Under the pieces are notes generated by a model. That model made no database searches. It was not told where the DNA came from and saw only the letters and a list, made by a program, of their open reading frames with translations. The translations under genes and the position numbers were made by a program. This document shows positions 1-25,248 of a stretch of DNA of 28,791 nt, in pieces. Position 1 is the stretch's first letter, and each line of letters opens with the position of its first letter. This stretch comes from a virus: UHGV virus genome UHGV-1403449, one strand, 5' to 3'.

Positions 1-339
1 CATCCCCGTTTTCTTACCGTCGGACGTGACGCCACCGATAATATTGGAGGTGGTTTCAGCTTCGGTTTCGCCCTGCGCCACGCGCACAACAACCGTCACG
101 GGCTTTGACTGATCGGCAATAGCATCCAGCGAACGGGCCAGCGTGCCGGACTCGCCTGCTTTACCGCTGGCCTCCAGCACATCCGTCAGCAGAACCGGCT
201 TGTTGAGGGGGAACACGGACGCATCAGCATCATCGCCGGTGCAGACCATACCTACGATAGCAGTGCTTACCGTGGTGAGGGAGCGGGTGCCGTCGTTGAC
301 TTCAACAACGCGCACCCCGTGGTGGTAATCCTGAGCCAT
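1..339 (-). CDS. P2 FI-like contractile tail sheath protein, N-terminal part only (gene runs off the left edge of the window)
   Basis: Reverse-strand ATG at 339..337 preceded by AGGAGG; translated N-terminus [51 protein letters not shown]... closely resembles the P2 FI sheath N-terminus as recalled from memory. The track's 143..328 plus-strand ORF is antisense to it. Confidence 0.7.
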
Positions 340-422: not shown

Positions 423-980
423 TTAATCACACAATGTCGCAGGATATTTGCGGTATAACGTAGAGACACCCACATCAAAAATTAAAGCTACCCGCTGCCG
501 TGTTTCACCTGCAGCAATTAACCTGCCTGCCTGCGCCCATTGCTCTGGCGTCAGTTTTGGTCTTCGCCCTCCAACCCTGCCTTTAGCCCTTGCAGCTTCC
601 AGTCCCGCACGGGTTCGTTCCACTATCAGCTCACGCTCCATCTCCGCCAGCGCCCCCATAACGTGAAAGAAAAACCGCCCCATTGGCGTACTGGTGTCTA
701 TGCTGTCAGTCAGACTACGGAAATTAACTCCGCGCTGCCGGAGTTCTTCTATCAGGGTAACAAGGTGTCGCATGCTTCTTCCCAGCCTGTCGAGTTTCCA
801 TACGACCAGCGTGTCTCCCTCTGATAACGTCCTGAGCAATCTTTTTAGCCCTGGCCTGTCTGCTGTTTTTCCGCTCATTTTGTCTTCAAAAATTAGCTCA
901 CATCCTGAGCGTTCCAGAGCACCACGCTGCAGCGCTGTGTTTTGCTCACTTGTTGATACGCGCACATAGCCGACTAACAT
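423..980 (-). CDS. pin: Serine recombinase, DNA invertase of the Hin/Gin/Cin/Pin family (tail-fibre inversion)
   Basis: Translation MLVGYVRVSTSEQNTALQ...VVWKLDRLGRSMRHL...GRRPKLT... has the resolvase/invertase catalytic-serine N-terminus and a C-terminal HTH. ORF is open to 998 but the ATG at 980..978 (MLVGYVRV) matches the family's start. It lies next to the invertible fibre cassette. Confidence 0.9.
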   Translation of the reverse strand: MLVGYVRVSTSEQNTALQRGALERSGCELIFEDKMSGKTADRPGLKRLLRTLSEGDTLVVWKLDRLGRSMRHLVTLIEELRQRGVNFRSLTDSIDTSTPMGRFFFHVMGALAEMERELIVERTRAGLEAARAKGRVGGRRPKLTPEQWAQAGRLIAAGETRQRVALIFDVGVSTLYRKYPATLCD

Positions 981-1041
981 TTGTTTTCCCTTATGCAAAA
1001 GTCCAAATAATGCCAGCCAGGCGGGAAAACAGCATTTTCTT

Positions 1042-1059
1042 AAACGTTGGTTTAGGAGA
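1042..1059. repeat. Left inverted repeat / candidate crossover site (gix/hix/pix-like) of the invertible tail-fibre segment
   Basis: TTAAACGTTGGTTTAGGAGA at ~1040-1059 matches the reverse complement of 2922-2946 (GCAAACCTTGGTTTGGGAGA) at about 16 of 20 positions; AAAC..GTTT core as in hix/gix sites. Confidence 0.6.
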
Positions 1060-1426
1060 TATCAGTGCTACAGGTGTTGCGACAGGTAGTATGGGCGAAA
1101 CCGGATATGCCATATTTCCGATGATGATTGGCGGTGCACGTAAGACTTTTATTATGCAATGGGGATTGCTGACGCCTCTGAAATCAGGTGGCTATGTGAA
1201 TATTAACCTTCCTGTCGCTTTTCCTACTATGGTGATGCAGGCATATGCAACACATGATAATGCGACACTAAACACACGCCCGACAGTATATGCAATTACT
1301 ACAACAAGCCGAACCACTATCACTGCGACGGCGACGTGCTTAGATGCTGGCTCAGTGGGCGCTACAGTGACACGCAGTAGTGACGATACTGCGTGTTACG
1401 GTCGTTATTTTGCAATAGGGTGCTGA
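1060..1426 (+). other. Silent alternative tail-fibre C-terminal cassette (Sv-prime-like), promoterless in the current orientation
   Basis: Plus-strand ORF 950..1426 crosses the left repeat; the peptide from ...NVGLGD onward is Gly/Thr-rich and fibre-like, and NVGLGD mirrors NLGLGE at the constant/variable junction of the expressed fibre gene. It is followed immediately by a plus-strand tail-fibre assembly gene. Confidence 0.6.
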
Positions 1427-1427
1427 A

Positions 1428-1871
1428 ATGAATCTTAAATATTTTTCTCCATCTGAAAATGCGTTTTATGCCGGGGAGCTTAAAGAAAGCTATATCGCTG
1501 CTGGCTCATGGCCTTCTGATGCCTCGGAGGTTGATGAAAGTCTTTATCTTGAGTTTATCGATAAACCGCCAGCAGGTAAGTATCGAGGAGTGGATAATGC
1601 AGGAATGCCCTGCTGGCTTGAAATTCCTCCTCCCACAGTAGAGGAAATGGCATCGAATGCAGAGAATATAAGACAGCAGCTCATTGATAAGGCAAATGTT
1701 TATATAAACAATCGTCAGTGGCCGGGAAAAGCAGCGATAGGCCGTTTAAAGGCAGATGAACTGGAACGATATAACCTTTGGCTGGATTATCTGGACGCAC
1801 TGGAACTGGTCGATACTTCCGGTGCGCCAGATATTGAATGGCCTACGCCTCCGGCAGTTCAGGCCAGATGA
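1428..1871 (+). CDS. Tail-fibre assembly chaperone, alternative copy (U-prime / Tfa-like) inside the invertible segment
   Basis: 147 aa; the C-terminal ...RYNLWLDYLDALELVDTSGAPDIEWPTPP motif parallels the C-terminus of the minus-strand Tfa (NAVLDYIDAVTATDTSTAPDVIWPELP). The two genes are convergent. Confidence 0.8.
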   Translation: MNLKYFSPSENAFYAGELKESYIAAGSWPSDASEVDESLYLEFIDKPPAGKYRGVDNAGMPCWLEIPPPTVEEMASNAENIRQQLIDKANVYINNRQWPGKAAIGRLKADELERYNLWLDYLDALELVDTSGAPDIEWPTPPAVQAR

Positions 1872-2445
1872 CATCCGGCGCGGTGCTGGTATCTGTTGCC
1901 GTCACCGCGTCAATGTAATCCAGCACGGCGTTAAGTCGGGTTGTTTCTGCCTGCGTCAACTTCCGTCCGGCCTGTAATTTCAGCTGAATCAGACTAATGG
2001 AAACCATTGCTGCATCAATCAGTGACTGGCGCTGTGCTTCTGCCGCTTCTACTGCGGCGCTATGCTGTGCCTCAGTATCCGTCACCCATTTCTCACCATC
2101 CCATTTATCATATGGCGTTAACGGGGCGATAGTGGTTGTATTTTCAGGGTAATCACCCGGAGCTGTGATTTCTTTGGCGTCTCCCGTTTCGGTGTTATAG
2201 ACGATTTCACCGCGATGGTCTGACACATATTCCCATGATTTTAAATCCACAGAACGGCAAATTGTATAACCAGCTTTATGTGTAACTGGTGCATCTAAAC
2301 AAGAACATGCCGGGATACCGACGCCAACCGCAAGATATTCAGTTGATGTGGAAATATATTCCCGCGTTTCACCATCATAGTTATAAACGGTAATATCCCC
2401 TGCCTTTGTAGCAACAAGTCCACTATTTAATATTGCTTTATCCAT
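1843..2445 (-). CDS. Tail-fibre assembly chaperone (U / Tfa-like), copy expressed in the current orientation
   Basis: 200 aa with the conserved Tfa C-terminal motif; start overlaps the stop of the upstream fibre gene (translational coupling). Confidence 0.8.
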   Translation of the reverse strand: MDKAILNSGLVATKAGDITVYNYDGETREYISTSTEYLAVGVGIPACSCLDAPVTHKAGYTICRSVDLKSWEYVSDHRGEIVYNTETGDAKEITAPGDYPENTTTIAPLTPYDKWDGEKWVTDTEAQHSAAVEAAEAQRQSLIDAAMVSISLIQLKLQAGRKLTQAETTRLNAVLDYIDAVTATDTSTAPDVIWPELPEA

Positions 2446-3329
2446 TATGCTGCTCTCACGATATAGTTAAATGCAATGTTTCTTGGTCTGTTCTCTGAGG
2501 CAGTTGGCACTACTCTTGAAGCATCAAAATTGACTAAATGAGGATTGTTTGGGGTATTTGGAATGATTGTGGTGTTACCTATCGTATTACGAAGTGCTGA
2601 TTGACTTACAAAAACACCACTCGCTGTATTAAAGCTAATAGCCGCATTAGCTTCGGTTTGTCCATTACCAAATGTGCCGGTTATATTACGAATAGCATCC
2701 CCCTGAGCAGACAGAATTTCGCGCCCCGCGTCAATACCGCGCCCGTCATCCCAACCACGAATAAACTCACCACGTAAATCAGGCAATTTATTTGTCGGAT
2801 AAGCCTTTGCCAGTTCCGGGTATTCTTCAGCAGAAAAAGCGGCACCGTTGCATTTCAGCCAGCCTGTTGGCGGAGTGGCGGAAGGCCACGGAACAGGGAC
2901 ACCAACAGGTAATGCAGAGCCTTCTCCCAAACCAAGGTTTGCGAGACCGTTTTTTGACGTTAATACAGGAGTCCATTTTGCTGATGGCGGCTGGCTACCA
3001 ATATTTGCATTTTGTAAGGACTGATAAGATTCACCGTTATGTGTGCAGATCGAACCGATATGATATTCCTGTTCTGCATGCCACTCTGGAACCCCCATTT
3101 GGTGCTGATACGCAATGAACTGACTCATTGCATACATTGCCGCATTGAAGTCCTCAAGCGAGGGGTGTTCGGAAGCGCCAACAATGCCCCATCCGCGAAG
3201 GAAAGATGCCGTAATTTGCGAGGTCAGGTCATCCGCCTGATTTGTTCCACCAAACACGGTTCTTTCCATTCCCTGTGCATCAGAGGCAAAAGCCCGAACA
3301 TCTCCCTGATATCGTACAATCTTAGACAT
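2445..3329 (-). CDS. Tail fibre protein (constant N-terminus of about 130 aa fused to the currently selected variable C-terminus carrying a tail-collar-type domain)
   Basis: 294 aa; C-terminal WLKCNGAAFSAEEYPELAKAYP...LPDLRGEFIRGWDDGRGID matches the phage tail collar motif; GAGGA Shine-Dalgarno before the ATG at 3329; the right inverted repeat lies at codons ~131-136 (NLGLGE). Confidence 0.8.
   Translation of the reverse strand: MSKIVRYQGDVRAFASDAQGMERTVFGGTNQADDLTSQITASFLRGWGIVGASEHPSLEDFNAAMYAMSQFIAYQHQMGVPEWHAEQEYHIGSICTHNGESYQSLQNANIGSQPPSAKWTPVLTSKNGLANLGLGEGSALPVGVPVPWPSATPPTGWLKCNGAAFSAEEYPELAKAYPTNKLPDLRGEFIRGWDDGRGIDAGREILSAQGDAIRNITGTFGNGQTEANAAISFNTASGVFVSQSALRNTIGNTTIIPNTPNNPHLVNFDASRVVPTASENRPRNIAFNYIVRAA
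2925..2942. repeat. Right inverted repeat / candidate crossover site of the invertible segment, inside the tail-fibre gene
   Basis: Reverse complement of 2922-2946 aligns with 1040-1059 (see left repeat); position matches the constant/variable junction of the fibre protein. Confidence 0.6.
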
Positions 3330-5222: not shown

Positions 5223-5586
5223 TCTTCAACGCTCCGTTGACCGGGAAGGTGATCGTCTGCTGGTCATAGACGGTCTCAATGCTGAGTTCGATTTTTTGTG
5301 ACCGGGTGGCCTTATTGACCTCCATCGCCAGAGCGGTAATGCGCATAACCCCATCCGTCGCCAGCGTCACGCGCTCTATCTCCCGCAGAATCTCCTGCTC
5401 GGTGTTTTTCTCTGATAACAGGTAAAGCCAGTCGATGTTGTCATCCATGTTGAGAGGATTATCGTTTTTGAACGAGCGGATCCGGCATTTGGCTTTCTGC
5501 GCGATAGCAGCACCGCCAGTTATATAGTTTGCCTTCCCGCGCCCAAATCCCCAGTCGTCATTTTTATCAAGTGCTGAAACAATCAT
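5206..5586 (-). CDS. Small baseplate protein (Mu gp46-like / GPW-like)
   Basis: 126 aa ORF between the gp45-like and gp47-like genes; synteny-based. Confidence 0.45.
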   Translation of the reverse strand: MIVSALDKNDDWGFGRGKANYITGGAAIAQKAKCRIRSFKNDNPLNMDDNIDWLYLLSEKNTEQEILREIERVTLATDGVMRITALAMEVNKATRSQKIELSIETVYDQQTITFPVNGALKNGTTV

Positions 5587-6200
5587 GAGATCTCCGTGAC
5601 AATACCGTTGGTAACTGTGATTGTTTTCCCGTCATCGCTTCGAAATGAACCAGACACCCCAGACTTACCGCCTGTCTTTACCTGGGAATATTGAAGTACA
5701 TTCAGAACATCGCATTCTTCCAGAGTCGTCTTACCATCTTTCTGGGTAATATTTCCTGTGAGGTTTAAATCACCCTCGTGGTCAGAATCCCCCTTCATCA
5801 TCCTGTTCTTCTTAGGGATATTGATCGCGGTAGCCTGTGGGTTAACCCCACACAGAGCGAAGCCATCTGAATAATCGTGCATACGCATTTCAAGTGGTGA
5901 AACAAAGTCGCTACCCGCATACCAAGCGTCATAACAACGCTCAGAGATAAGGACGAGGCAATAGTCACCAGCCGCAATTGGTTCGGCGATATAACTATCA
6001 CCGCCTTGCAAAATTACCGGGGGGACTTCAATGAACTCTGGGAGTTGCTTGCTGCTCCCTTTCACAACCCGATTGATAACGGGGACGCAACTGATTGTTT
6101 TGTCATTTACAGACGTTATTTTTGCGACAACAATGGTGTGAACATCGGCCAGAGCAAATTCAACACCCAGGCCGATAGTGTCGTGAAGTTCTTCGATCAT
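5583..6200 (-). CDS. Baseplate spike / assembly protein (Mu gp45-like, gpV-like)
   Basis: 205 aa; follows the hub-like gene in Mu order; synteny-based. Confidence 0.45.
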   Translation of the reverse strand: MIEELHDTIGLGVEFALADVHTIVVAKITSVNDKTISCVPVINRVVKGSSKQLPEFIEVPPVILQGGDSYIAEPIAAGDYCLVLISERCYDAWYAGSDFVSPLEMRMHDYSDGFALCGVNPQATAINIPKKNRMMKGDSDHEGDLNLTGNITQKDGKTTLEECDVLNVLQYSQVKTGGKSGVSGSFRSDDGKTITVTNGIVTEIS

Positions 6201-6315
6201 AAATTAAGCCCATAAAAAACCGCCAGAGTGGGTTCAATGGATGGCTAGATAAATACTCATACTAATCGCCGTAGAGCGAACCTGCGCCAGCGTTTAATAC
6301 TAAGGAGAGTCACTC

Positions 6316-6849
6316 ATGGGATTCAAATTCAGACAGCGCATCAAAATTGCACCAGGCATTCATATAAACATAGGTAAAACAGGCATTACTAGCGCATCAA
6401 TTGGTAAGGCTGGTGCTACCCTGAACGTTGGTAAAAAAGGGGTAAAGGCAACCGCAGGCATTCCCGGTACCGGTTTGTCTTACACGAGTGGAAACTTGCT
6501 CGCGGGTCAAAAGAGCTCCACCGGTAAACACGCTGAGAACGTAGAGGAACAAGCACCTGAGCGGCTTGGTTTCTTTTCGGACTCAACGTTGTTAGAGGAT
6601 GGTCAGGAAGATATTCAACCACCTCGCCCATTGGTCATGGTATTAACCCATAAGCAATTTAGAAAACTATCAACCGAGGAGAAAACGGCATTTAAAAATG
6701 CAGGTGGTAAGGTGAAGTTTTCAATAGGCGAGAAAATTTTTATTCTCACAGTCATTATTTTTGCTCTTGGCTGGCTTTCAGATCGTCACCCACCAGAAAA
6801 AACCAATTCCAGCGTAACGCAAGAAGTAAAATCTTCAGTTAACAACTGA
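6316..6849 (+). CDS. Moron gene: DUF4236-like protein with a C-terminal transmembrane anchor
   Basis: Opposite strand to the whole tail operon; AAGGAG Shine-Dalgarno 8 nt before the ATG; N-terminus MGFKFRQRIKIAPGIHINIGKTGITSASIGKAGATLNVGKKGVKATAGIPGTGLSY resembles the DUF4236 signature as recalled; C-terminal hydrophobic stretch IFILTVIIFALGWL; its 3' end overlaps the convergent baseplate hub gene by 15 nt. Confidence 0.7.
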   Translation: MGFKFRQRIKIAPGIHINIGKTGITSASIGKAGATLNVGKKGVKATAGIPGTGLSYTSGNLLAGQKSSTGKHAENVEEQAPERLGFFSDSTLLEDGQEDIQPPRPLVMVLTHKQFRKLSTEEKTAFKNAGGKVKFSIGEKIFILTVIIFALGWLSDRHPPEKTNSSVTQEVKSSVNN

Positions 6850-7782
6850 GTAATTTCCGGCAGGCTGGCATACCACCTTCTGATACCAGGCTGCCCCGTT
6901 GTTCTGCCCGCTGGTTTCAATCTGGTATATCTTATAAACCCCGTTTAACGCGGGGTTCGTCACGCTTTCAACAGCGCAAAGCCCACCGATCACCAGCATA
7001 GGATTCAGTTTCGTATCGAATACGATCTGCCCTTTCGAGGATTTGGCTAAGGTACTCGAGTCAGTATCTTTTTTGCCTGCCGGATCCGTATCAGGCTCAT
7101 TGGTTGGCATCTTGGCTTTCTTCCCCCCGTCATCCTGTGCGCTAATCTTCGTTGCCTGAGGCGTATTTAGCAGACCGCTACGCGCATTCACGACTGGAAT
7201 GTTACCCGATGTAACCTCATTAGCCTTGAGGATGTGGACGCGCTCATCTTTGATGAAAAATGACTCGTCGGACGCAAGGGTATCGGTAAGAATTTTACTG
7301 GAGCTACCTACCAGAACCTTCGGCCTGATGAGTGCTTGTTGCTTCGTCACAGAGCCTTTTTTCGTGTTTGGCATATCCTGCAAGACAGAATCGACGACCT
7401 GATCTTTCCCGCGTACCGTGCGCGATGTGAAAGCGTTGATATAGTCGTGGCCACCGTCTTCACATTCCAGGCTGACGATGTGGATCGCCCCCTCACGCTT
7501 TACTGCTCCGCTTTTAACCGAACCCTGAAATACCTGGCGCAGCTTGCCGTCGTAACCAACCTCGAGTCGAACGGGGATATACTTCTCTTCATCTTCGGAC
7601 TTGAGCAATTGCAGACGCGTGGAAGGCTTTAGCCCGTTGATGGACACACTCAGCTTGCCGAGTGACTTCTTGTCCACAGTTTCCAGCGCCTTGAATGACA
7701 CGGTGATCGGTGGCTCGATAATCACTGCTTGATTGCCGATCCCCACCGTCAGCCGATAATCACGGTAAAAAGTATCCATCAC
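6835..7782 (-). CDS. Baseplate hub-like protein (Mu gp44 position)
   Basis: 315 aa ORF in Mu gene-P position between the N-like gene and the gp45-like gene. Confidence 0.45.
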   Translation of the reverse strand: MMDTFYRDYRLTVGIGNQAVIIEPPITVSFKALETVDKKSLGKLSVSINGLKPSTRLQLLKSEDEEKYIPVRLEVGYDGKLRQVFQGSVKSGAVKREGAIHIVSLECEDGGHDYINAFTSRTVRGKDQVVDSVLQDMPNTKKGSVTKQQALIRPKVLVGSSSKILTDTLASDESFFIKDERVHILKANEVTSGNIPVVNARSGLLNTPQATKISAQDDGGKKAKMPTNEPDTDPAGKKDTDSSTLAKSSKGQIVFDTKLNPMLVIGGLCAVESVTNPALNGVYKIYQIETSGQNNGAAWYQKVVCQPAGNYSVVN

Positions 7783-8114
7783 GGCACGTCTCCCCCGCGA
7801 ATATCAATCATCTCTTCCGGCGTGACCAGATACATTTCGATGCGACCACTGGCGAAGTCGTCAGCCCGATATGGGTCAATGCCGGAATTGTCAGCGCAAA
7901 GTAACACAACGTCGAAAGGCCAGTTCTTGTGCCGAAAATGTAGCGTCCCGAGGGACAGCTTCACGCCGTCGATGTAATCACCGTTGTACTCCACGCGCAT
8001 TTTCCACATTTCAACCGTAGGCAGATAACGAATAGTGACCACAGCCTCACCACGGTCAAAAATCAGAACATGCCGCTGGATAGGTTCGTCAGTGATGTTG
8101 GTTATCGGATCCAT
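7779..8114 (-). CDS. Hypothetical tail/baseplate protein
   Basis: 111 aa ORF, 4-nt overlap with the downstream gene, embedded in the tail operon; no motif recognised. Confidence 0.35.
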   Translation of the reverse strand: MDPITNITDEPIQRHVLIFDRGEAVVTIRYLPTVEMWKMRVEYNGDYIDGVKLSLGTLHFRHKNWPFDVVLLCADNSGIDPYRADDFASGRIEMYLVTPEEMIDIRGGDVP

Positions 8115-10882: not shown

Positions 10883-11296
10883 TTATGTTCGAGGATTTAA
10901 CGTAAATTTCTGAACGTCTGGAGCTTCTGAACGTGAGTTCATATTGCTCCCGCCCATAAAAGGCAGGCTGATAACCTGAAGCGCTGTTGTGATTAGCATG
11001 ACGTAATCACCAGGGTAGGATTCGAAGTGTTCCGGCTGCTTAGACAGTTGCACACCGTCAAACAGAACGTAATCGAACATCAGGCGTTCAATTTCCTCAA
11101 ATCGCTCTGAGTCCAGAAACTCAAGAGACTGCCGCGATAACTCAGAGGCAATGCCTGTGAAGAAGGCAAAAACCTTGCGGCGTTTTTTGTGTGTCATCGC
11201 AGCAAAGTCGTAGCGGTTGCCGTTGATTTCAGCAAAACCGTCATCGTAGACCGCCTTGATCATCTCGAGTGCTTTTTTCTGCTGTTCTTTAGACAT
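10883..11296 (-). CDS. Tail assembly chaperone (between tube and tape measure)
   Basis: 137 aa acidic protein in the canonical chaperone position of contractile-tail clusters. Confidence 0.5.
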   Translation of the reverse strand: MSKEQQKKALEMIKAVYDDGFAEINGNRYDFAAMTHKKRRKVFAFFTGIASELSRQSLEFLDSERFEEIERLMFDYVLFDGVQLSKQPEHFESYPGDYVMLITTALQVISLPFMGGSNMNSRSEAPDVQKFTLNPRT

Positions 11297-11304
11297 ATCT
11301 GACC

Positions 11305-11736
11305 TTATACATTACGCACGACATTGCGGTACTCAATGGTGTATTCCATCAGTGCGTTAACGTCCTGGTTGTTTTTGGTTTGCGTCGGTTGTGTGGTGAT
11401 AGAACCGGCCTGAAGATCGTAGGTTTCCTTCAGTGCCGCGCCGTCGCGCACGAACGACTCTTTAACTGAGCCGTTAAAGACAACGGGGATCGCGGCGGTA
11501 CGCTGCTGGTTAAGCCAGATATCATCGTTAGAAAATTTCTGGACACGTATCACCATCACATGCACCCCGGCATCAACACGCCCCGAGATTGTGACGCCGT
11601 TATTCGCACTATTGGCGCGGCTTGTAAGCGGATTGGATGGCGTCAGCGTGACGTAGTCCCCCGCAGCGATATCCGTGATGATTCGCCCATTCAGAACGAT
11701 GGTCGCGGTATCTGCACTGATAACAATCTGAGACAT
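11305..11736 (-). CDS. Tail tube protein
   Basis: 143 aa ORF immediately downstream of the sheath gene (Mu L-M order). Confidence 0.6.
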   Translation of the reverse strand: MSQIVISADTATIVLNGRIITDIAAGDYVTLTPSNPLTSRANSANNGVTISGRVDAGVHVMVIRVQKFSNDDIWLNQQRTAAIPVVFNGSVKESFVRDGAALKETYDLQAGSITTQPTQTKNNQDVNALMEYTIEYRNVVRNV

Positions 11737-11746
11737 TTACCGCTCC

Positions 11747-13249
11747 TTATTTATTGAAATTGATGATGATATCGGCACTGTGAACAGCACCAGCATTCTT
11801 CACTGCTACCTGAACAACCGGGGATTTGCGTTCCTGCCTGTCTGCGGTTGACTGGTCTTTCAGGTCACCGGCCAGCACGTAATACCCGTTTTGCTCGATA
11901 TTTCGCAGAAACATATCCCGATCCCCGAAGAAGTCAGGCAGCGTCCAGGTACCCGGATTGAACACCCCAGCCTTCACAAACCCATGCGTGGTTTTCTCTA
12001 CACAGTCCTCTAACTGATCAACGCCATAATAGGTTTGTGGGACTTTAGTCGGCGTGGTTTTAAGGAGGTTGAAGGAATCCGTCTGCACTGCGTCAACGTA
12101 GGCCATCAGGTTATAGACGTTGTCGACAAAATCATTAGCACCGCTCGACAGCACGCAGGGAACGTCTTTAATCGTGGTGTAGATGTCGAGACCTACACGC
12201 TTCGCTTTGTCGATCTCCGTCTGCTCATAACTTTCGGCCGGCACGTTCATCGTTTTGAGGTGCAAAGTGATTGCAGTGCGTTCTCCGTTGAAATTAACGG
12301 TATGCGTGCGCGCCATATAGCTAACACCAAATTTCCGGTTGCCTGTTTTGCTGTAGAGCATGCGGAAATTACTCTGGCTGGCGAGTGTTACCGCCCATGC
12401 CGGGTTAGTCGGATCAACTTCCAGAGCTGCCGAACCGGTAAATGTCTCATACACGATTACCGCGTTCGCTTTAGCCCATGAAGCGATCAACGGCACCTGC
12501 GCATCGAGAATTTTGTCGATGAAGGCCGCGCCTTTTACGTTGACCTGCGCTTTGAGTTTGCTGAGAGATTCCAGTTGTGTTTCCGGTGAAATCTCAGTTG
12601 ATGCGCTACCGTTTACCAGCGAAGCGCCGGAACCCTCCGCAACCGCCAGCAGATCGCCAATAAAAGAGCCACCATCCAGCACTGTCGGATAACCAACAAC
12701 AGAGTTAGTCCCTGTCGATTTGTTGGTAATCGCTATACGGCTGCCATCAAAAACAACCGATGCAACATCTGGCGTAATTTTCGCCTGGATTTGGGCGATG
12801 ACATCTGCCAGTGTCGTCGCCGTCATGCCATTAATTTCAGTCACATCGTGCTTAGTGCCGTCAATCTCAATACTGAATGACCAGTCAGACTTCTCGCGTA
12901 ACGCTGGCAGTACGACTGCCTGAGAAATCTCACCGCCACGCAGTACACCGCTGGTCGCAGGCAGCGTTTCCCCGGCAGCGTTCCAGTAACCGACGATCAG
13001 CGTGCCGCCCGCGGATACCGGGTTAGGACTGGTCCCGAAAAACACATTCGCAAAAGCTGCGGTGACTGAAGAAGCCCCCCAGTCCTGTTCGACAGCAGAT
13101 GCGCTTTTGTATGAACGCCAGCGTTCAGCAGTGCTCAATACCCCCGTCTGGCTGGTCAGAATTGCGCAAACGTTGATGTTATCTCGCGCCGCCGCCCGTC
13201 CCTCTTCGAGAAGCGTCACATTAATGACGTTATTAATTGATGCCGACAT
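11747..13249 (-). CDS. Contractile tail sheath protein (Mu gpL-like)
   Basis: 500 aa ORF, first large gene after the head-tail joining genes and followed by tube, chaperone and tape measure; size and position typical of Mu-like sheath. Confidence 0.7.
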   Translation of the reverse strand: MSASINNVINVTLLEEGRAAARDNINVCAILTSQTGVLSTAERWRSYKSASAVEQDWGASSVTAAFANVFFGTSPNPVSAGGTLIVGYWNAAGETLPATSGVLRGGEISQAVVLPALREKSDWSFSIEIDGTKHDVTEINGMTATTLADVIAQIQAKITPDVASVVFDGSRIAITNKSTGTNSVVGYPTVLDGGSFIGDLLAVAEGSGASLVNGSASTEISPETQLESLSKLKAQVNVKGAAFIDKILDAQVPLIASWAKANAVIVYETFTGSAALEVDPTNPAWAVTLASQSNFRMLYSKTGNRKFGVSYMARTHTVNFNGERTAITLHLKTMNVPAESYEQTEIDKAKRVGLDIYTTIKDVPCVLSSGANDFVDNVYNLMAYVDAVQTDSFNLLKTTPTKVPQTYYGVDQLEDCVEKTTHGFVKAGVFNPGTWTLPDFFGDRDMFLRNIEQNGYYVLAGDLKDQSTADRQERKSPVVQVAVKNAGAVHSADIIINFNK

Positions 13250-22268: not shown

Positions 22269-22829
22269 ATGAAATACTCACAGCAAGAAAAACTACAGAT
22301 CATGATGCTCAGTGATATTCACCGAGCATTAGAAATTGAAAACTCATTTGATCCTGACCTCATTGACGAAGCAGTGAGCACGGATAACTACTGGGCTTTA
22401 TCCTGGGAATACCCAGGCCTTCAAGATGAAGAAGAGGAGACCCCCTGGGAAGTCCAGCTTTTCGTTGATACCTATGATATGTATGACATTCTCCAATACA
22501 CATACGAACGATTCAGTGCGGAAGACAAAGCAGAGGTTGCCAAATCTATTCGTAATTTCGATGAGAAATTATCACTCACATTCCCCGGATTTGACGGTAA
22601 CAACGAATCAAAGTTTCTTTTGATTGGTAGTTTATTGAAACGAATGGGACGGTTTAGCGGCAAAGACGATCTCACCCGGAACTCTCACATGCCCTCTGTT
22701 GCAATTTACCAACGTATGCTTGAAGTTTTCCTTCCTGCCAGAGCTAAGAATTGGGTTCACAATGTGGGCATTACTAAACATGATTTTATCGATACACTCA
22801 ACGCGAGAGTGCATCCAGAAAATCGTTAA
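22269..22829 (+). CDS. Moron gene: putative YfbU-like (UPF0304) protein
   Basis: 186 aa ORF on the opposite strand between the spanin and terS genes, with its own promoter-like and terminator-like elements; C-terminal ...YQRMLEVFLP... and overall pattern resemble E. coli YfbU as recalled from memory (unverified). Confidence 0.5.
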   Translation: MKYSQQEKLQIMMLSDIHRALEIENSFDPDLIDEAVSTDNYWALSWEYPGLQDEEEETPWEVQLFVDTYDMYDILQYTYERFSAEDKAEVAKSIRNFDEKLSLTFPGFDGNNESKFLLIGSLLKRMGRFSGKDDLTRNSHMPSVAIYQRMLEVFLPARAKNWVHNVGITKHDFIDTLNARVHPENR

Positions 22830-24456: not shown

Positions 24457-25248
24457 TCAATTACCCAATGGCTTATGTAGTTTAAATGGGTTAAGTGATT
24501 CTTCATTTTTCAGGCTTATCTTTAAATTCACAGCAATCAGTGAATGATCGTCAGTTGGTCCAGCGCGCTGTATCCGCTTAAAAAGATTGGTTGAAAAGTT
24601 AGTAGCATTCTTCAATGTATTGGGAGAAAAACGCGGGCGGCGTTCCCAGAAGTGATGGGCTCCATCGGACATCAGAAAAAGAGAAACAACACCGTCATGG
24701 TCCATCAAATCTGACAGGGGTAACGAAATATGCTGAAATTTTATTGGCAGGACTTTAGAAATAGCTGCAGTAAGCATGTTCTTTCCTGGTAAGTCTTCCA
24801 ATTCCCTTTTCGTATATAACCCATCGTCGAGCAACTCTTGATGCTGTGAGTGATCTTTCGTTAGTAGTTTTAATTTGTTATCAATTTTTACATACACCCG
24901 AGTATCGCCTACATGGATTACATTAAGTAACTCACCATGTACAACACAGTAGGATAATGTTGTTGCGGCCTTGCGCTTCTCTGAATCGAACTGAGATAGT
25001 TCAGATATTTTGTCTTTTGCACCACTAAGTATCGCATCAGGATCAGAACTGGCTTTCAGTTTATGAGTTGCGACATAGTCTACTGCAGCTTGCGCTGCTT
25101 CTTTAGCACCAGCATAAGACCCGACACCATCAGCAATAGCAAAAATGAAGCCATCATCACATTGTTGCGGGAGTAGTAACGCATCTTGGTTTTCACGACC
25201 ATGATCTTTGGGGCATGAAAATGCACCACAGCTCAACAACTCAATCAT
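24457..25248 (-). CDS. PP2C-family Ser/Thr protein phosphatase
   Basis: 263 aa; metal-binding motifs of PP2C phosphatases (IADGVGS, GDTRVY, MSDGAHHF); start overlaps the kinase stop by 4 nt (ATGA). Confidence 0.75.
   Translation of the reverse strand: MIELLSCGAFSCPKDHGRENQDALLLPQQCDDGFIFAIADGVGSYAGAKEAAQAAVDYVATHKLKASSDPDAILSGAKDKISELSQFDSEKRKAATTLSYCVVHGELLNVIHVGDTRVYVKIDNKLKLLTKDHSQHQELLDDGLYTKRELEDLPGKNMLTAAISKVLPIKFQHISLPLSDLMDHDGVVSLFLMSDGAHHFWERRPRFSPNTLKNATNFSTNLFKRIQRAGPTDDHSLIAVNLKISLKNEESLNPFKLHKPLGN

Follow-up and report, generated by a model that had tools for sequence, protein, structure and literature searches.

A DUF4236 gene antisense to the baseplate operon of an Escherichia coli lambdoid prophage, a candidate inner-membrane exclusion moron

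SieA of phage P22 is an inner-membrane protein that is expressed from the prophage and is sufficient to block DNA injection; its gene has its own promoter, no more than 85 bp from the start, and the proteins of this family share an FxRYPxEAxxFNK motif and a topology of three or four transmembrane (TM) helices (PMC10883804). A second precedent is gp15 of phage HK97, which is encoded by a moron in the tail operon and blocks genome entry (PMC3594210). Here we analyse a stretch of 28,791 nucleotides from the UHGV virus genome UHGV-1403449 (hereafter the window), in which a plus-strand gene for a DUF4236-domain protein lies inside a minus-strand baseplate operon. Our overall reading, to which we assign a probability of roughly 0.4, is that this gene is a moron whose tail-anchored product is made in the lysogen and would protect it against superinfecting phages.

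The gene resembles sieA chiefly in its position. Both encode an inner-membrane protein, in the window a predicted one, against the direction of the late operon and converge on a virion gene, and in Salmonella and Yersinia relatives the DUF4236 gene stands downstream of a Mnt-like gene with divergent arc-ant genes, as sieA does in the immI region of P22 (gene 16, then sieA-orf59a-mnt on the opposite strand, then arc-ant-9). The proteins, however, have no significant similarity (BLASTP E 0.034 over 21 amino acids), and whereas P22 SieA consists of three TM helices with no soluble domain, the window protein has a single C-terminal TM helix preceded by about 135 residues that are predicted to be cytoplasmic; by neither homology nor topology does it belong to the P22 SieA family. 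The window itself also has no mnt, arc or ant, and derives from a contractile-tailed phage rather than a P22-like podovirus. Like HK97 gp15, the product is predicted to be a small single-pass inner-membrane protein whose gene is inserted within the tail cluster of a lambdoid prophage. Gp15, however, has 62 amino acids and an N-terminal TM helix, and its gene is co-oriented with the tail genes and has an annotated terminator, while the window gene is antisense, encodes 177 amino acids and has no detectable terminator. Membership in Pfam DUF4236 and the corresponding annotation were known already, as is the general kind, a prophage moron for a small inner-membrane protein; the present analysis adds a cargo hotspot at the hub-spike junction, an immI-like module within the baseplate operon of a myovirus in which DUF4236 takes the sieA position, and the modular anatomy of the protein, of which natural domain-deletion variants exist.

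The gene and its place in the late region

The window is the late-gene region, on the minus strand, of a lambdoid contractile-tail prophage of E. coli. Genes for the Q antiterminator and NinG (27–28.6 kb) are followed by the lysis, terminase and head genes, and further on by those for the sheath (DUF3383), tape-measure, Dit-like, plug, hub, spike and baseplate proteins and an invertible tail-fibre segment. The part from 5500 to 7900 is 100% identical to chromosomal prophages in E. coli VE-F5, NADC1036 and TUM9803, and RefSeq already names the gene 'DUF4236 domain-containing protein' in the identical stretch. The slot and its borders are made up as follows.

6316–6849 including stop, plus strand: coding sequence of the DUF4236 protein, 177 amino acids, ATG start, identical to WP_000505900.1 (open reading frame list, Pfam, RefSeq, dN/dS)
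6302–6307, plus strand: Shine-Dalgarno sequence AAGGAG, 8 nt 5′ of the ATG
6201–6315, plus strand: intergenic leader, with a block (6259–6315) homologous to the spacer of the Salmonella locus L003; promoter scan negative
5583–6200, minus strand: central spike gene, left border of the slot (Gp138_N, Pfam E 1e-17)
6835–7782, minus strand: baseplate hub gene, right border of the slot (Pfam E217_gp41; PHROG 196 'baseplate hub', E 3e-51)

A first-pass annotation, made from the letters alone, had described a single plus-strand gene that interrupts the minus-strand tail operon for about 650 bp, with a strong AAGGAG ribosome-binding site and a 15-nt overlap with the convergent hub gene. This description is borne out: 6316–6849 is the sole plus-strand gene between the spike and hub genes, the interruption spans 634 bp (6201–6834), the ribosome-binding site is present at the position listed above, and the overlap falls at 6835–6849. 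The sequence AAGGA(G/A) is retained across relatives of the window type, of the immI type, and of a type in which the DUF4236 gene is accompanied by a gene that we call peri120 (see below). The upstream region had also been called AT-rich; its GC content of 44.3% is indeed lower than that of the window (50.2%), though only modestly. With 43.8% for the DUF4236 gene, 46.8% for the spike gene and 51.2% for the hub gene, the base composition of the gene is distinct from its surroundings, as expected of a moron (Juhala et al. 2000; Cumby et al. 2012, PMC3594210), albeit by a modest difference.

The reading frame is under coding constraint. Rival open reading frames on the other strand are all of 71 amino acids or fewer. 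We estimated the ratio of nonsynonymous to synonymous substitution rates (dN/dS) by the Nei–Gojobori method against 19 distinct homologous gene sequences, and obtained 0.04–0.28 for the whole gene. By region, the ratio was 0–0.16 in the DUF4236 domain, 0.04–0.18 in the juxtamembrane and TM block, 0.3–0.6 in the linker and about 0.6–1.5 in the tail; variants of the window type at a synonymous distance (dS) of 0.14–0.18 gave 0.22–0.28, with 0–0.16 in the DUF4236 domain. Full-length homologues at 53–91% identity come from E. coli, Salmonella, Kluyvera, Pantoea, Yersinia and metagenomes, and the frame is unbroken in all 16 loci in which DUF4236 is the only cargo. This is almost certainly a real, selectively maintained accessory gene. 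The possibility of antisense noise with no coding constraint, which the first-pass annotation had itself raised, is therefore excluded by the purifying selection on the gene and by its domain-wise conservation.

A cargo hotspot between the hub and spike genes

With the hub protein as anchor, we collected 76 loci in which hub and spike genes are both present; as many of them are near-identical, the counts represent diversity rather than independent events. The census draws mainly on IMG/VR contigs, a scan of genome contigs with the hub protein having given 2 loci. The gap between the two genes is occupied as follows, with strands given relative to the late operon.

DUF4236 alone, antisense: 16 loci
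DUF4236 followed by peri120 (a 120-amino-acid protein with a signal peptide), antisense: 14 loci
peri120 alone, antisense: 23 loci
ant/arc/mnt module with DUF4236, mixed strands: 5 loci
membrane module without DUF4236, antisense: 3 loci
bPH_2 membrane protein, sense: 7 loci
DUF7424 lipoprotein, sense: 5 loci
secreted tRNA_anti-like/OB-fold protein, sense: 2 loci
empty gap of 32 bp (L074): 1 locus

The site is thus variable among related prophages, with nine gap contents across the 76 loci, a comparison that the first-pass annotation had proposed. DUF4236 is missing from 41 of the 76, and the hub and spike genes are intact there. Where relatives carry other cargo, their DNA homology to the window ends at 6200–6219 and resumes at 6829–6851, which correspond to the ATG of the spike gene and the stop codon of the hub gene. 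Yersinia phage fEV-1 and Vibrio phage VBM1, which are more distant, have directly overlapping hub and spike genes, and the gap is therefore a derived feature; together with the empty locus L074, these phages identify the insert as extra DNA between genes that are adjacent in related phages. Furthermore, cargo identity (61–66%) is uncoupled from that of the hub flank (91–93%), which indicates horizontal exchange. Comparison of these loci shows 6201–6834 to be a moron, an accessory cassette that occupies a hotspot of recombination in a lambdoid, Q-dependent myovirus prophage. The moron reading of the first-pass annotation is in this respect strongly supported, given breakpoints at the spike ATG and hub stop, absence from the outgroups and L074, and replacement elsewhere.

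All of the alternative cargo proteins bear an envelope signal, be it a signal peptide, TM helices or a lipobox. Two of them have informative PHROG matches, the secreted OB-fold protein to PHROG 8545, 'superinfection exclusion Sie-like' (E 8e-14), and the bPH_2 protein to an entry of the moron category; a search of five alternative cargo proteins with the PADLOC defence models gave no match. The commonest cargo, peri120 (120–128 amino acids), is secreted and all-helical with two cysteines, and is found either alone or directly downstream of the DUF4236 gene (for instance at L011 6950–7312, L024 5952–6311 and L010 6955–7341, and at about 35 further loci), always antisense. It gave no credible Pfam, PHROG or PADLOC match, the Pfam hits being sub-threshold only (E > 0.05). 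At L011, a Citrobacter murliniae prophage, the hub gene (6004–6949) is split into 6004–6480 and 6593–6949, probably by frameshift or pseudogenisation.

P2 and P4 phages reportedly encode hotspots of accessory and defence genes, as Rousset et al. are said to have described in 2022. The hub-spike slot is comparable in that a fixed junction of two conserved genes holds many unrelated cargo genes in otherwise collinear prophages. It differs in its location within the baseplate operon and in its cargo, which is made up of lone small envelope proteins or of an immI module instead of multi-gene defence systems; none of this cargo matches PADLOC.

The E. coli sequences H6–H8, which match on the spike side only, were considered as no-insert controls and set aside, H6 (strain 1506) being an uninformative remnant truncated by IS1. 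At L002 8702–9640, in strain 1506, homology ends just past the spike start codon and IS1 follows about 170–220 bp on; beyond it lie recT, xis and int of another element, which marks a decayed chimeric prophage. In HCP8S3_I1 and MSB1_1D homology stops at the same point, and these are probably likewise chimeric.

Five relatives carry a counterpart of the P22 arrangement. In the gap of Salmonella L003 and L004 and Yersinia L005–L007, genes for an Arc-like protein and a P22_AR_N antirepressor lie on the late strand, and on the divergent strand a gene for a Mnt-like protein (42% identical to P22 Mnt) is followed after about 70 nt by the DUF4236 gene. These complete P22-type immI modules inside the baseplate operon occupy 4361–5931 in L003, 3478–5048 in L004 and 4481–5937 in L005–L007, and their intergenic region contains a 10/12 site, TTGACA-16-TAAATT with an upstream TG, that faces arc-ant. 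The leader of the window gene (6259–6315) is homologous to the spacer between mnt and DUF4236 in L003, and blastn aligns 6259–6740 with that locus at 76.8% identity; what separates the window type from the immI type is therefore a clean gain or loss of mnt-arc-ant. The place of the gene after mnt, which in P22 is that of the lysogen-expressed exclusion gene sieA, agrees with the suggestion made at first pass of a gene expressed in the lysogen that could act at the envelope, for instance in superinfection exclusion. Antirepressor genes are neighbours of DUF4236 genes in Acinetobacter phage Ab11510-phi, where the protein combines DUF4236 with a TM helix, and in Pasteurella Pmp2. A further opposite-strand gene is seen in the Yersinia loci L005–L007, where a NUMOD3-domain (homing-endonuclease-like) gene occupies 11295–12095 on the plus strand between sheath and tube-region genes.

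Similar genes occur in other phages. Klebsiella phage GZ7 (OP114732; L083 2901–3345) has a gene for a 105-amino-acid protein with DUF4236, an acidic linker and a TM helix, which is antisense at the same junction between a Gp138_N spike and an E217_gp41 hub. The phage is temperate, with integrase, CI and Q genes, and a promoter-like 10/12 sigma-70 site precedes the DUF4236 gene by about 70 nt, while a terminator with an 8-bp stem and a T-run follows 7 nt beyond the stop codon; judged by its sequence, this unit is a textbook moron. It appears to be the sole credible opposite-strand gene of the GZ7 late region, as two other annotated frames overlap forward structural genes. In Salmonella 4,[5],12:i:-, a DUF4236 gene occurs with tail proteins in a 5-kb prophage remnant beside hin (PMC8049487). 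The DUF4236 protein of Clostridium phage phiCD146 (L091 3501–4142) has 213 amino acids, a helical C-terminal part and no TM helix, and its gene lies between those for tail chaperone-like and tape-measure proteins, which is the slot of the HK97 gp15 moron.

Protein anatomy and topology

The first-pass annotation had recognised a DUF4236 signature, and a Pfam search confirms it: PF14020 matches residues 3–57 with 69.0 bits against a gathering cut-off of 27 (E 4.9e-19), over positions 1–55 of the 55 in the model. An AlphaFold2 model was computed from a 61-sequence alignment, with confidence expressed as the predicted local distance difference test (pLDDT). The parts of the protein, all encoded on the plus strand, are the following.

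6322–6486 (residues 3–57), plus strand: DUF4236 domain, Gly/Lys-rich, net charge +9 over residues 1–61; AlphaFold2 strands at 7–58, pLDDT about 90
6499–6636 (residues 62–107), plus strand: acidic disordered linker, charge −5, pLDDT below 50, tolerant of insertions and deletions
6565–6579 (residues 84–88), plus strand: RLGFF motif, semi-conserved and hydrophobic, within the otherwise variable linker
6637–6723 (residues 108–136), plus strand: basic juxtamembrane module LTxKQFRKLSxEEKxxFKxAGGKVKFS, invariant alignment columns
6724–6786 (residues 137–157), plus strand: C-terminal TM helix with core IFILTVIIFALGWL; AlphaFold2 helix, Kyte–Doolittle maximum 1.87 (19-residue window 133–151)
6787–6849, plus strand: predicted short periplasmic tail and stop, dN/dS 0.6–1.5; the last 15 nt overlap the hub 3′ end

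In the model, residues 7–58 form a six-strand antiparallel beta-meander, and two short helices fall within 112–128. The acidic linker and single C-terminal hydrophobic helix noted at first pass are both present, the linker with a charge of −5 and the helix as a single segment, IFILTVIIFALGWL, at 141–154. The alignment has two conserved blocks, separated by the variable linker and followed by a variable tail. Residues 1–61, which contain the DUF4236 domain, are nearly invariant, and a conserved C-terminal block (residues 108–158) comprises LTxKQFRKLSxEEKxxFKxAGGKVKFSxGEK, the hydrophobic helix, and then GWLSDRH. Between them, the linker has lost 28 amino acids in the homologues P0015, P0016 and P0018; these natural short forms lack RLGFF, a motif that looks like a short docking peptide.

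The charge distribution is consistent with a cytoplasmic N-terminus, as the 31 residues ahead of the TM helix carry a net charge of +5 and those after it a net charge of 0. From the positive-inside rule and the lack of a signal peptide, the protein is therefore predicted to be tail-anchored with its N-terminus inside and C-terminus outside; a topology prediction had been suggested at first pass, and the single C-terminal TM helix at 137–157 is its result. Anchoring in the inner membrane in this orientation is thus very probable on the model, and some 135 residues should be cytoplasmic and some 20 periplasmic, with the DUF4236 domain probably in the cytoplasm. The homologues are in keeping with this arrangement. 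A TM-like segment follows the domain in 72 of 89 DUF4236 homologues, and the family layout of N-terminal domain, low-complexity linker and TM segment is one to which the window protein, with its domain starting at residue 3, conforms. Fusion partners of DUF4236 among the homologues include SH3_3, TM2, zinc ribbons, HTH and TPR; in some, extracytoplasmic SH3_3 or TM2 domains follow the TM segment, and one has a cytoplasmic HTH fusion. Some homologues also have a C-terminal extension of about 75 amino acids with two cysteines, which fits a periplasmic location.

With its full-model match and typical layout, the window protein is an ordinary member of Pfam DUF4236; it departs from the family in its narrow-range C-terminal juxtamembrane module, which had 4 credible relatives among 1.84 billion cluster representatives and is confined to Enterobacterales prophage proteins. 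Four proteins (those of L054 and L072, with 147 amino acids, that of L080, with 157 amino acids, and P0091) are devoid of DUF4236 yet retain the TM helix and, ahead of it, the juxtamembrane motif KEFRKLSKAEKKEFKKAGGKV. To these they add a periplasmic domain of about 85 amino acids with two cysteines (KIPDSFD...NAFGVSIP...C.TD), and the same domain also extends the DUF4236 proteins P0009–P0011, P0019 and L068. As the proteins without DUF4236 retain the membrane module, it is this module, rather than DUF4236, that the sequences point to as the constant part at the hub-spike slot.

Expression, proposed function and other features of the window

We propose the following mechanism. The gene would have a weak promoter of its own, directed against the late operon, and its product would be made in the lysogen; the protein would be tail-anchored in the inner membrane with the DUF4236 domain facing the cytoplasm. 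There, most likely, it would interfere at the membrane surface with the channel or the ejection proteins through which the DNA of an incoming phage is delivered. Superinfecting phages would thereby be excluded, and the protein would be analogous in function, though not homologous, to P22 SieA and HK97 gp15. Transcription apart from the Q-dependent late operon is suggested because the gene is antisense to that operon, and expression in the lysogen, because of this orientation and the P22-like mnt-DUF4236 arrangement in relatives; on this analysis the latter is somewhat favoured. That the protein acts by blocking entry is a more tentative proposal, advanced because of the position equivalent to that of sieA, the precedent of HK97 gp15, and the envelope proteins, one of them Sie-like, among the alternative cargo.

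A number of findings weigh against this reading. A sigma-70 consensus scan of 6201–6315 found no site, and a manual look for weaker −10/−35 pairs in the same region gave 4/6 plus 2–3/6 at best; an intrinsic terminator scan of 5900–7200 found none, and the gene thus lacks the terminator of its own that is typical of a moron. The promoter-like site at 6106–6134 (described below) lies in the spike gene, and the scan yields such matches at chance frequency. Moreover, if the window type arose by deletion of mnt-arc-ant, the original promoter of the gene may have been lost. Comparisons with known functions were also negative: BLASTP revealed no credible homology to SieA, HK97 gp15 gave no local alignment at E ≤ 100 and the protein does not belong to the gp15/YebO group, and PADLOC-DB 2.0 gave 0 families at E ≤ 1. 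Of the Pfam and fold searches suggested at first pass, the former confirmed the domain as described, but the latter returned no solved structure, as the PDB sequence profile search gave a chance match only (E 0.18). A literature search for a function of DUF4236 found none, only mention in passing. The argument from position is, in addition, guilt by association, and the family as a whole is not uniform in its setting. In Pasteurella Pmp2 the DUF4236 gene, a neighbour of hub and spike, shares the orientation of the tail genes, in phiCD146 it is on the tail-gene (late) strand, and virulent Klebsiella and Brevundimonas phages also carry DUF4236 proteins; lysogen-specific expression is therefore not a family-wide rule. 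In other searches, NCBIfam had no match for the protein, Foldseek against BFVD returned other DUF4236 proteins only, Rfam found no RNA family in the whole window, and literature matches to 'PF14020' were Plasmodium gene identifiers.

One site may nonetheless serve as a promoter for the cargo.

6106–6134, plus strand: promoter-like site TTTACA-17-AACAAT inside the 5′ coding part of the spike gene, the sole plus-strand match in a scan of 5900–7200

In relatives with peri120 only, the ATG of the cargo gene is about 21 nt from the divergent ATG of the spike gene, and any promoter there must therefore lie inside the spike gene. Among 48 distinct spike genes, 10 synonymous-capable wobble sites are invariant, 3 of which are inside the 29-nt element; the element holds one more wobble position that is kept in 46 of 48, and the sole variable base of the hexamers is a non-consensus one. 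At the empty-site locus L074, a key T of the −10 hexamer is changed to C. This wobble test was post hoc and is confounded by the general synonymous constraint at the 5′ ends of genes, and we regard 6106–6134 as a weak candidate for the cargo promoter. A weak hairpin at about 6936–6962, in the hub gene, was considered as a terminator of the moron and rejected, since it has no T-run and is conserved coding sequence. Just upstream of the spike ribosome-binding site, the minus strand at 6214–6234 has AACC..GGTT followed by TTTTTTAT on the late strand. This hairpin is weak in the window, has a clear 6-bp stem with a T-run in L061, and takes the form CGC-UUCG-GCG with T7 in the class with DUF4236 and peri120. 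It may correspond to the P22 terminator that separates ant from gene 9, and would then insulate the spike gene from transcripts that are not antiterminated.

One may postulate an alternative in which the membrane protein benefits the lysogen by other means, as an abortive-infection or depolarising effector, a modulator of an inner-membrane protein of the host, or a fitness factor under stress or in colonisation. This is unlikely but must be taken seriously, as the moron and hotspot evidence applies to it equally, and a conserved cytoplasmic domain suits sensing or the binding of a partner as well as it suits the blocking of a channel. The RLGFF motif in its disordered acidic linker, with its resemblance to a docking peptide, and the diversity of fusions (SH3_3, TM2, zinc ribbons, HTH and TPR), which suggests a general adaptor or oligomerisation module, point in the same direction. 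The protein has, however, no PADLOC match and no toxin-like or enzymatic domain, and the P22 sieA position and the Sie-like PHROG among the alternative cargo favour exclusion.

An improbable alternative is a role in the lytic cycle of the phage itself, as a tether or chaperone in baseplate and spike assembly, a helper of genome delivery, or a factor in lysis timing. DUF4236 genes do stand beside hub and spike genes in GZ7 and Pmp2, whose hubs are only distantly related, and the late-strand gene of phiCD146 between tail chaperone and tape-measure genes and the DUF4236-TM proteins of virulent phages are consistent with such a role. The close relatives of the window argue otherwise: hub and spike are intact in the 41 of 76 loci that have no DUF4236, one site is empty, the outgroups fEV-1 and VBM1 have no such gene, and in the window lineage the gene runs opposite to the Q-dependent late operon and shows the signature of horizontal exchange (cargo identity of 61–66% against 91–93% in the hub). 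Lastly, that the gene is a decaying remnant, whose promoter was lost in an immI (mnt-arc-ant) deletion and which is now silent or spuriously expressed, fits the homology of the leader (6259–6315) to the mnt-DUF4236 spacer and the lack of any remaining consensus promoter, but is highly improbable given that the frame is intact in 16 of 16 DUF4236-only loci, that variants still show a dN/dS of 0.22–0.28, that the strong ribosome-binding site is kept, and that P22 sieA has its own promoter downstream of mnt, so that dependence on Pmnt need not be assumed.

Exclusion by a tail-anchored, lysogen-expressed protein thus remains our preferred reading, and it offers a concrete hypothesis for DUF4236, a domain found across bacteria and phages, as part of a cytoplasm-facing, tail-anchored exclusion protein. 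It is a doubtful but consequential extension that tail-anchored DUF4236 proteins form a widespread, unrecognised family of inner-membrane exclusion or anti-phage proteins, and that the hub-spike junction is an undescribed hotspot at which envelope defences are swapped, in some cases with a full P22-type immI. If true, this would provide a new exclusion family and a cargo hotspot from which the envelope defences of prophages in Enterobacterales could be mined; if not confirmed, the gene would be an ordinary conserved hypothetical moron. Natural controls exist at a single site, as among collinear prophages some have only the domain there, some only the membrane module, others different cargo or an empty gap.

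Several other features of the window were observed. A second opposite-strand gene of the late region, at 22269–22829 on the plus strand, is flanked by the lysis cassette and the small terminase gene; it encodes a YfbU-domain protein and is probably another moron. On the minus strand, a gene for a PP2C-type protein phosphatase (24460–25248) lies between the Q/Nin region and the lysis genes. The invertible tail-fibre segment occupies 426–3329, and this end of the window differs from strain VE-F5. It includes a Hin/Gin-type serine invertase gene (426–998, minus strand), an alternative fibre C-terminus (950–1423, plus strand) with an assembly gene (1428–1868, plus strand), and, facing these, a second assembly gene (1846–2445, minus strand) and the fibre gene (2448–3329, minus strand).

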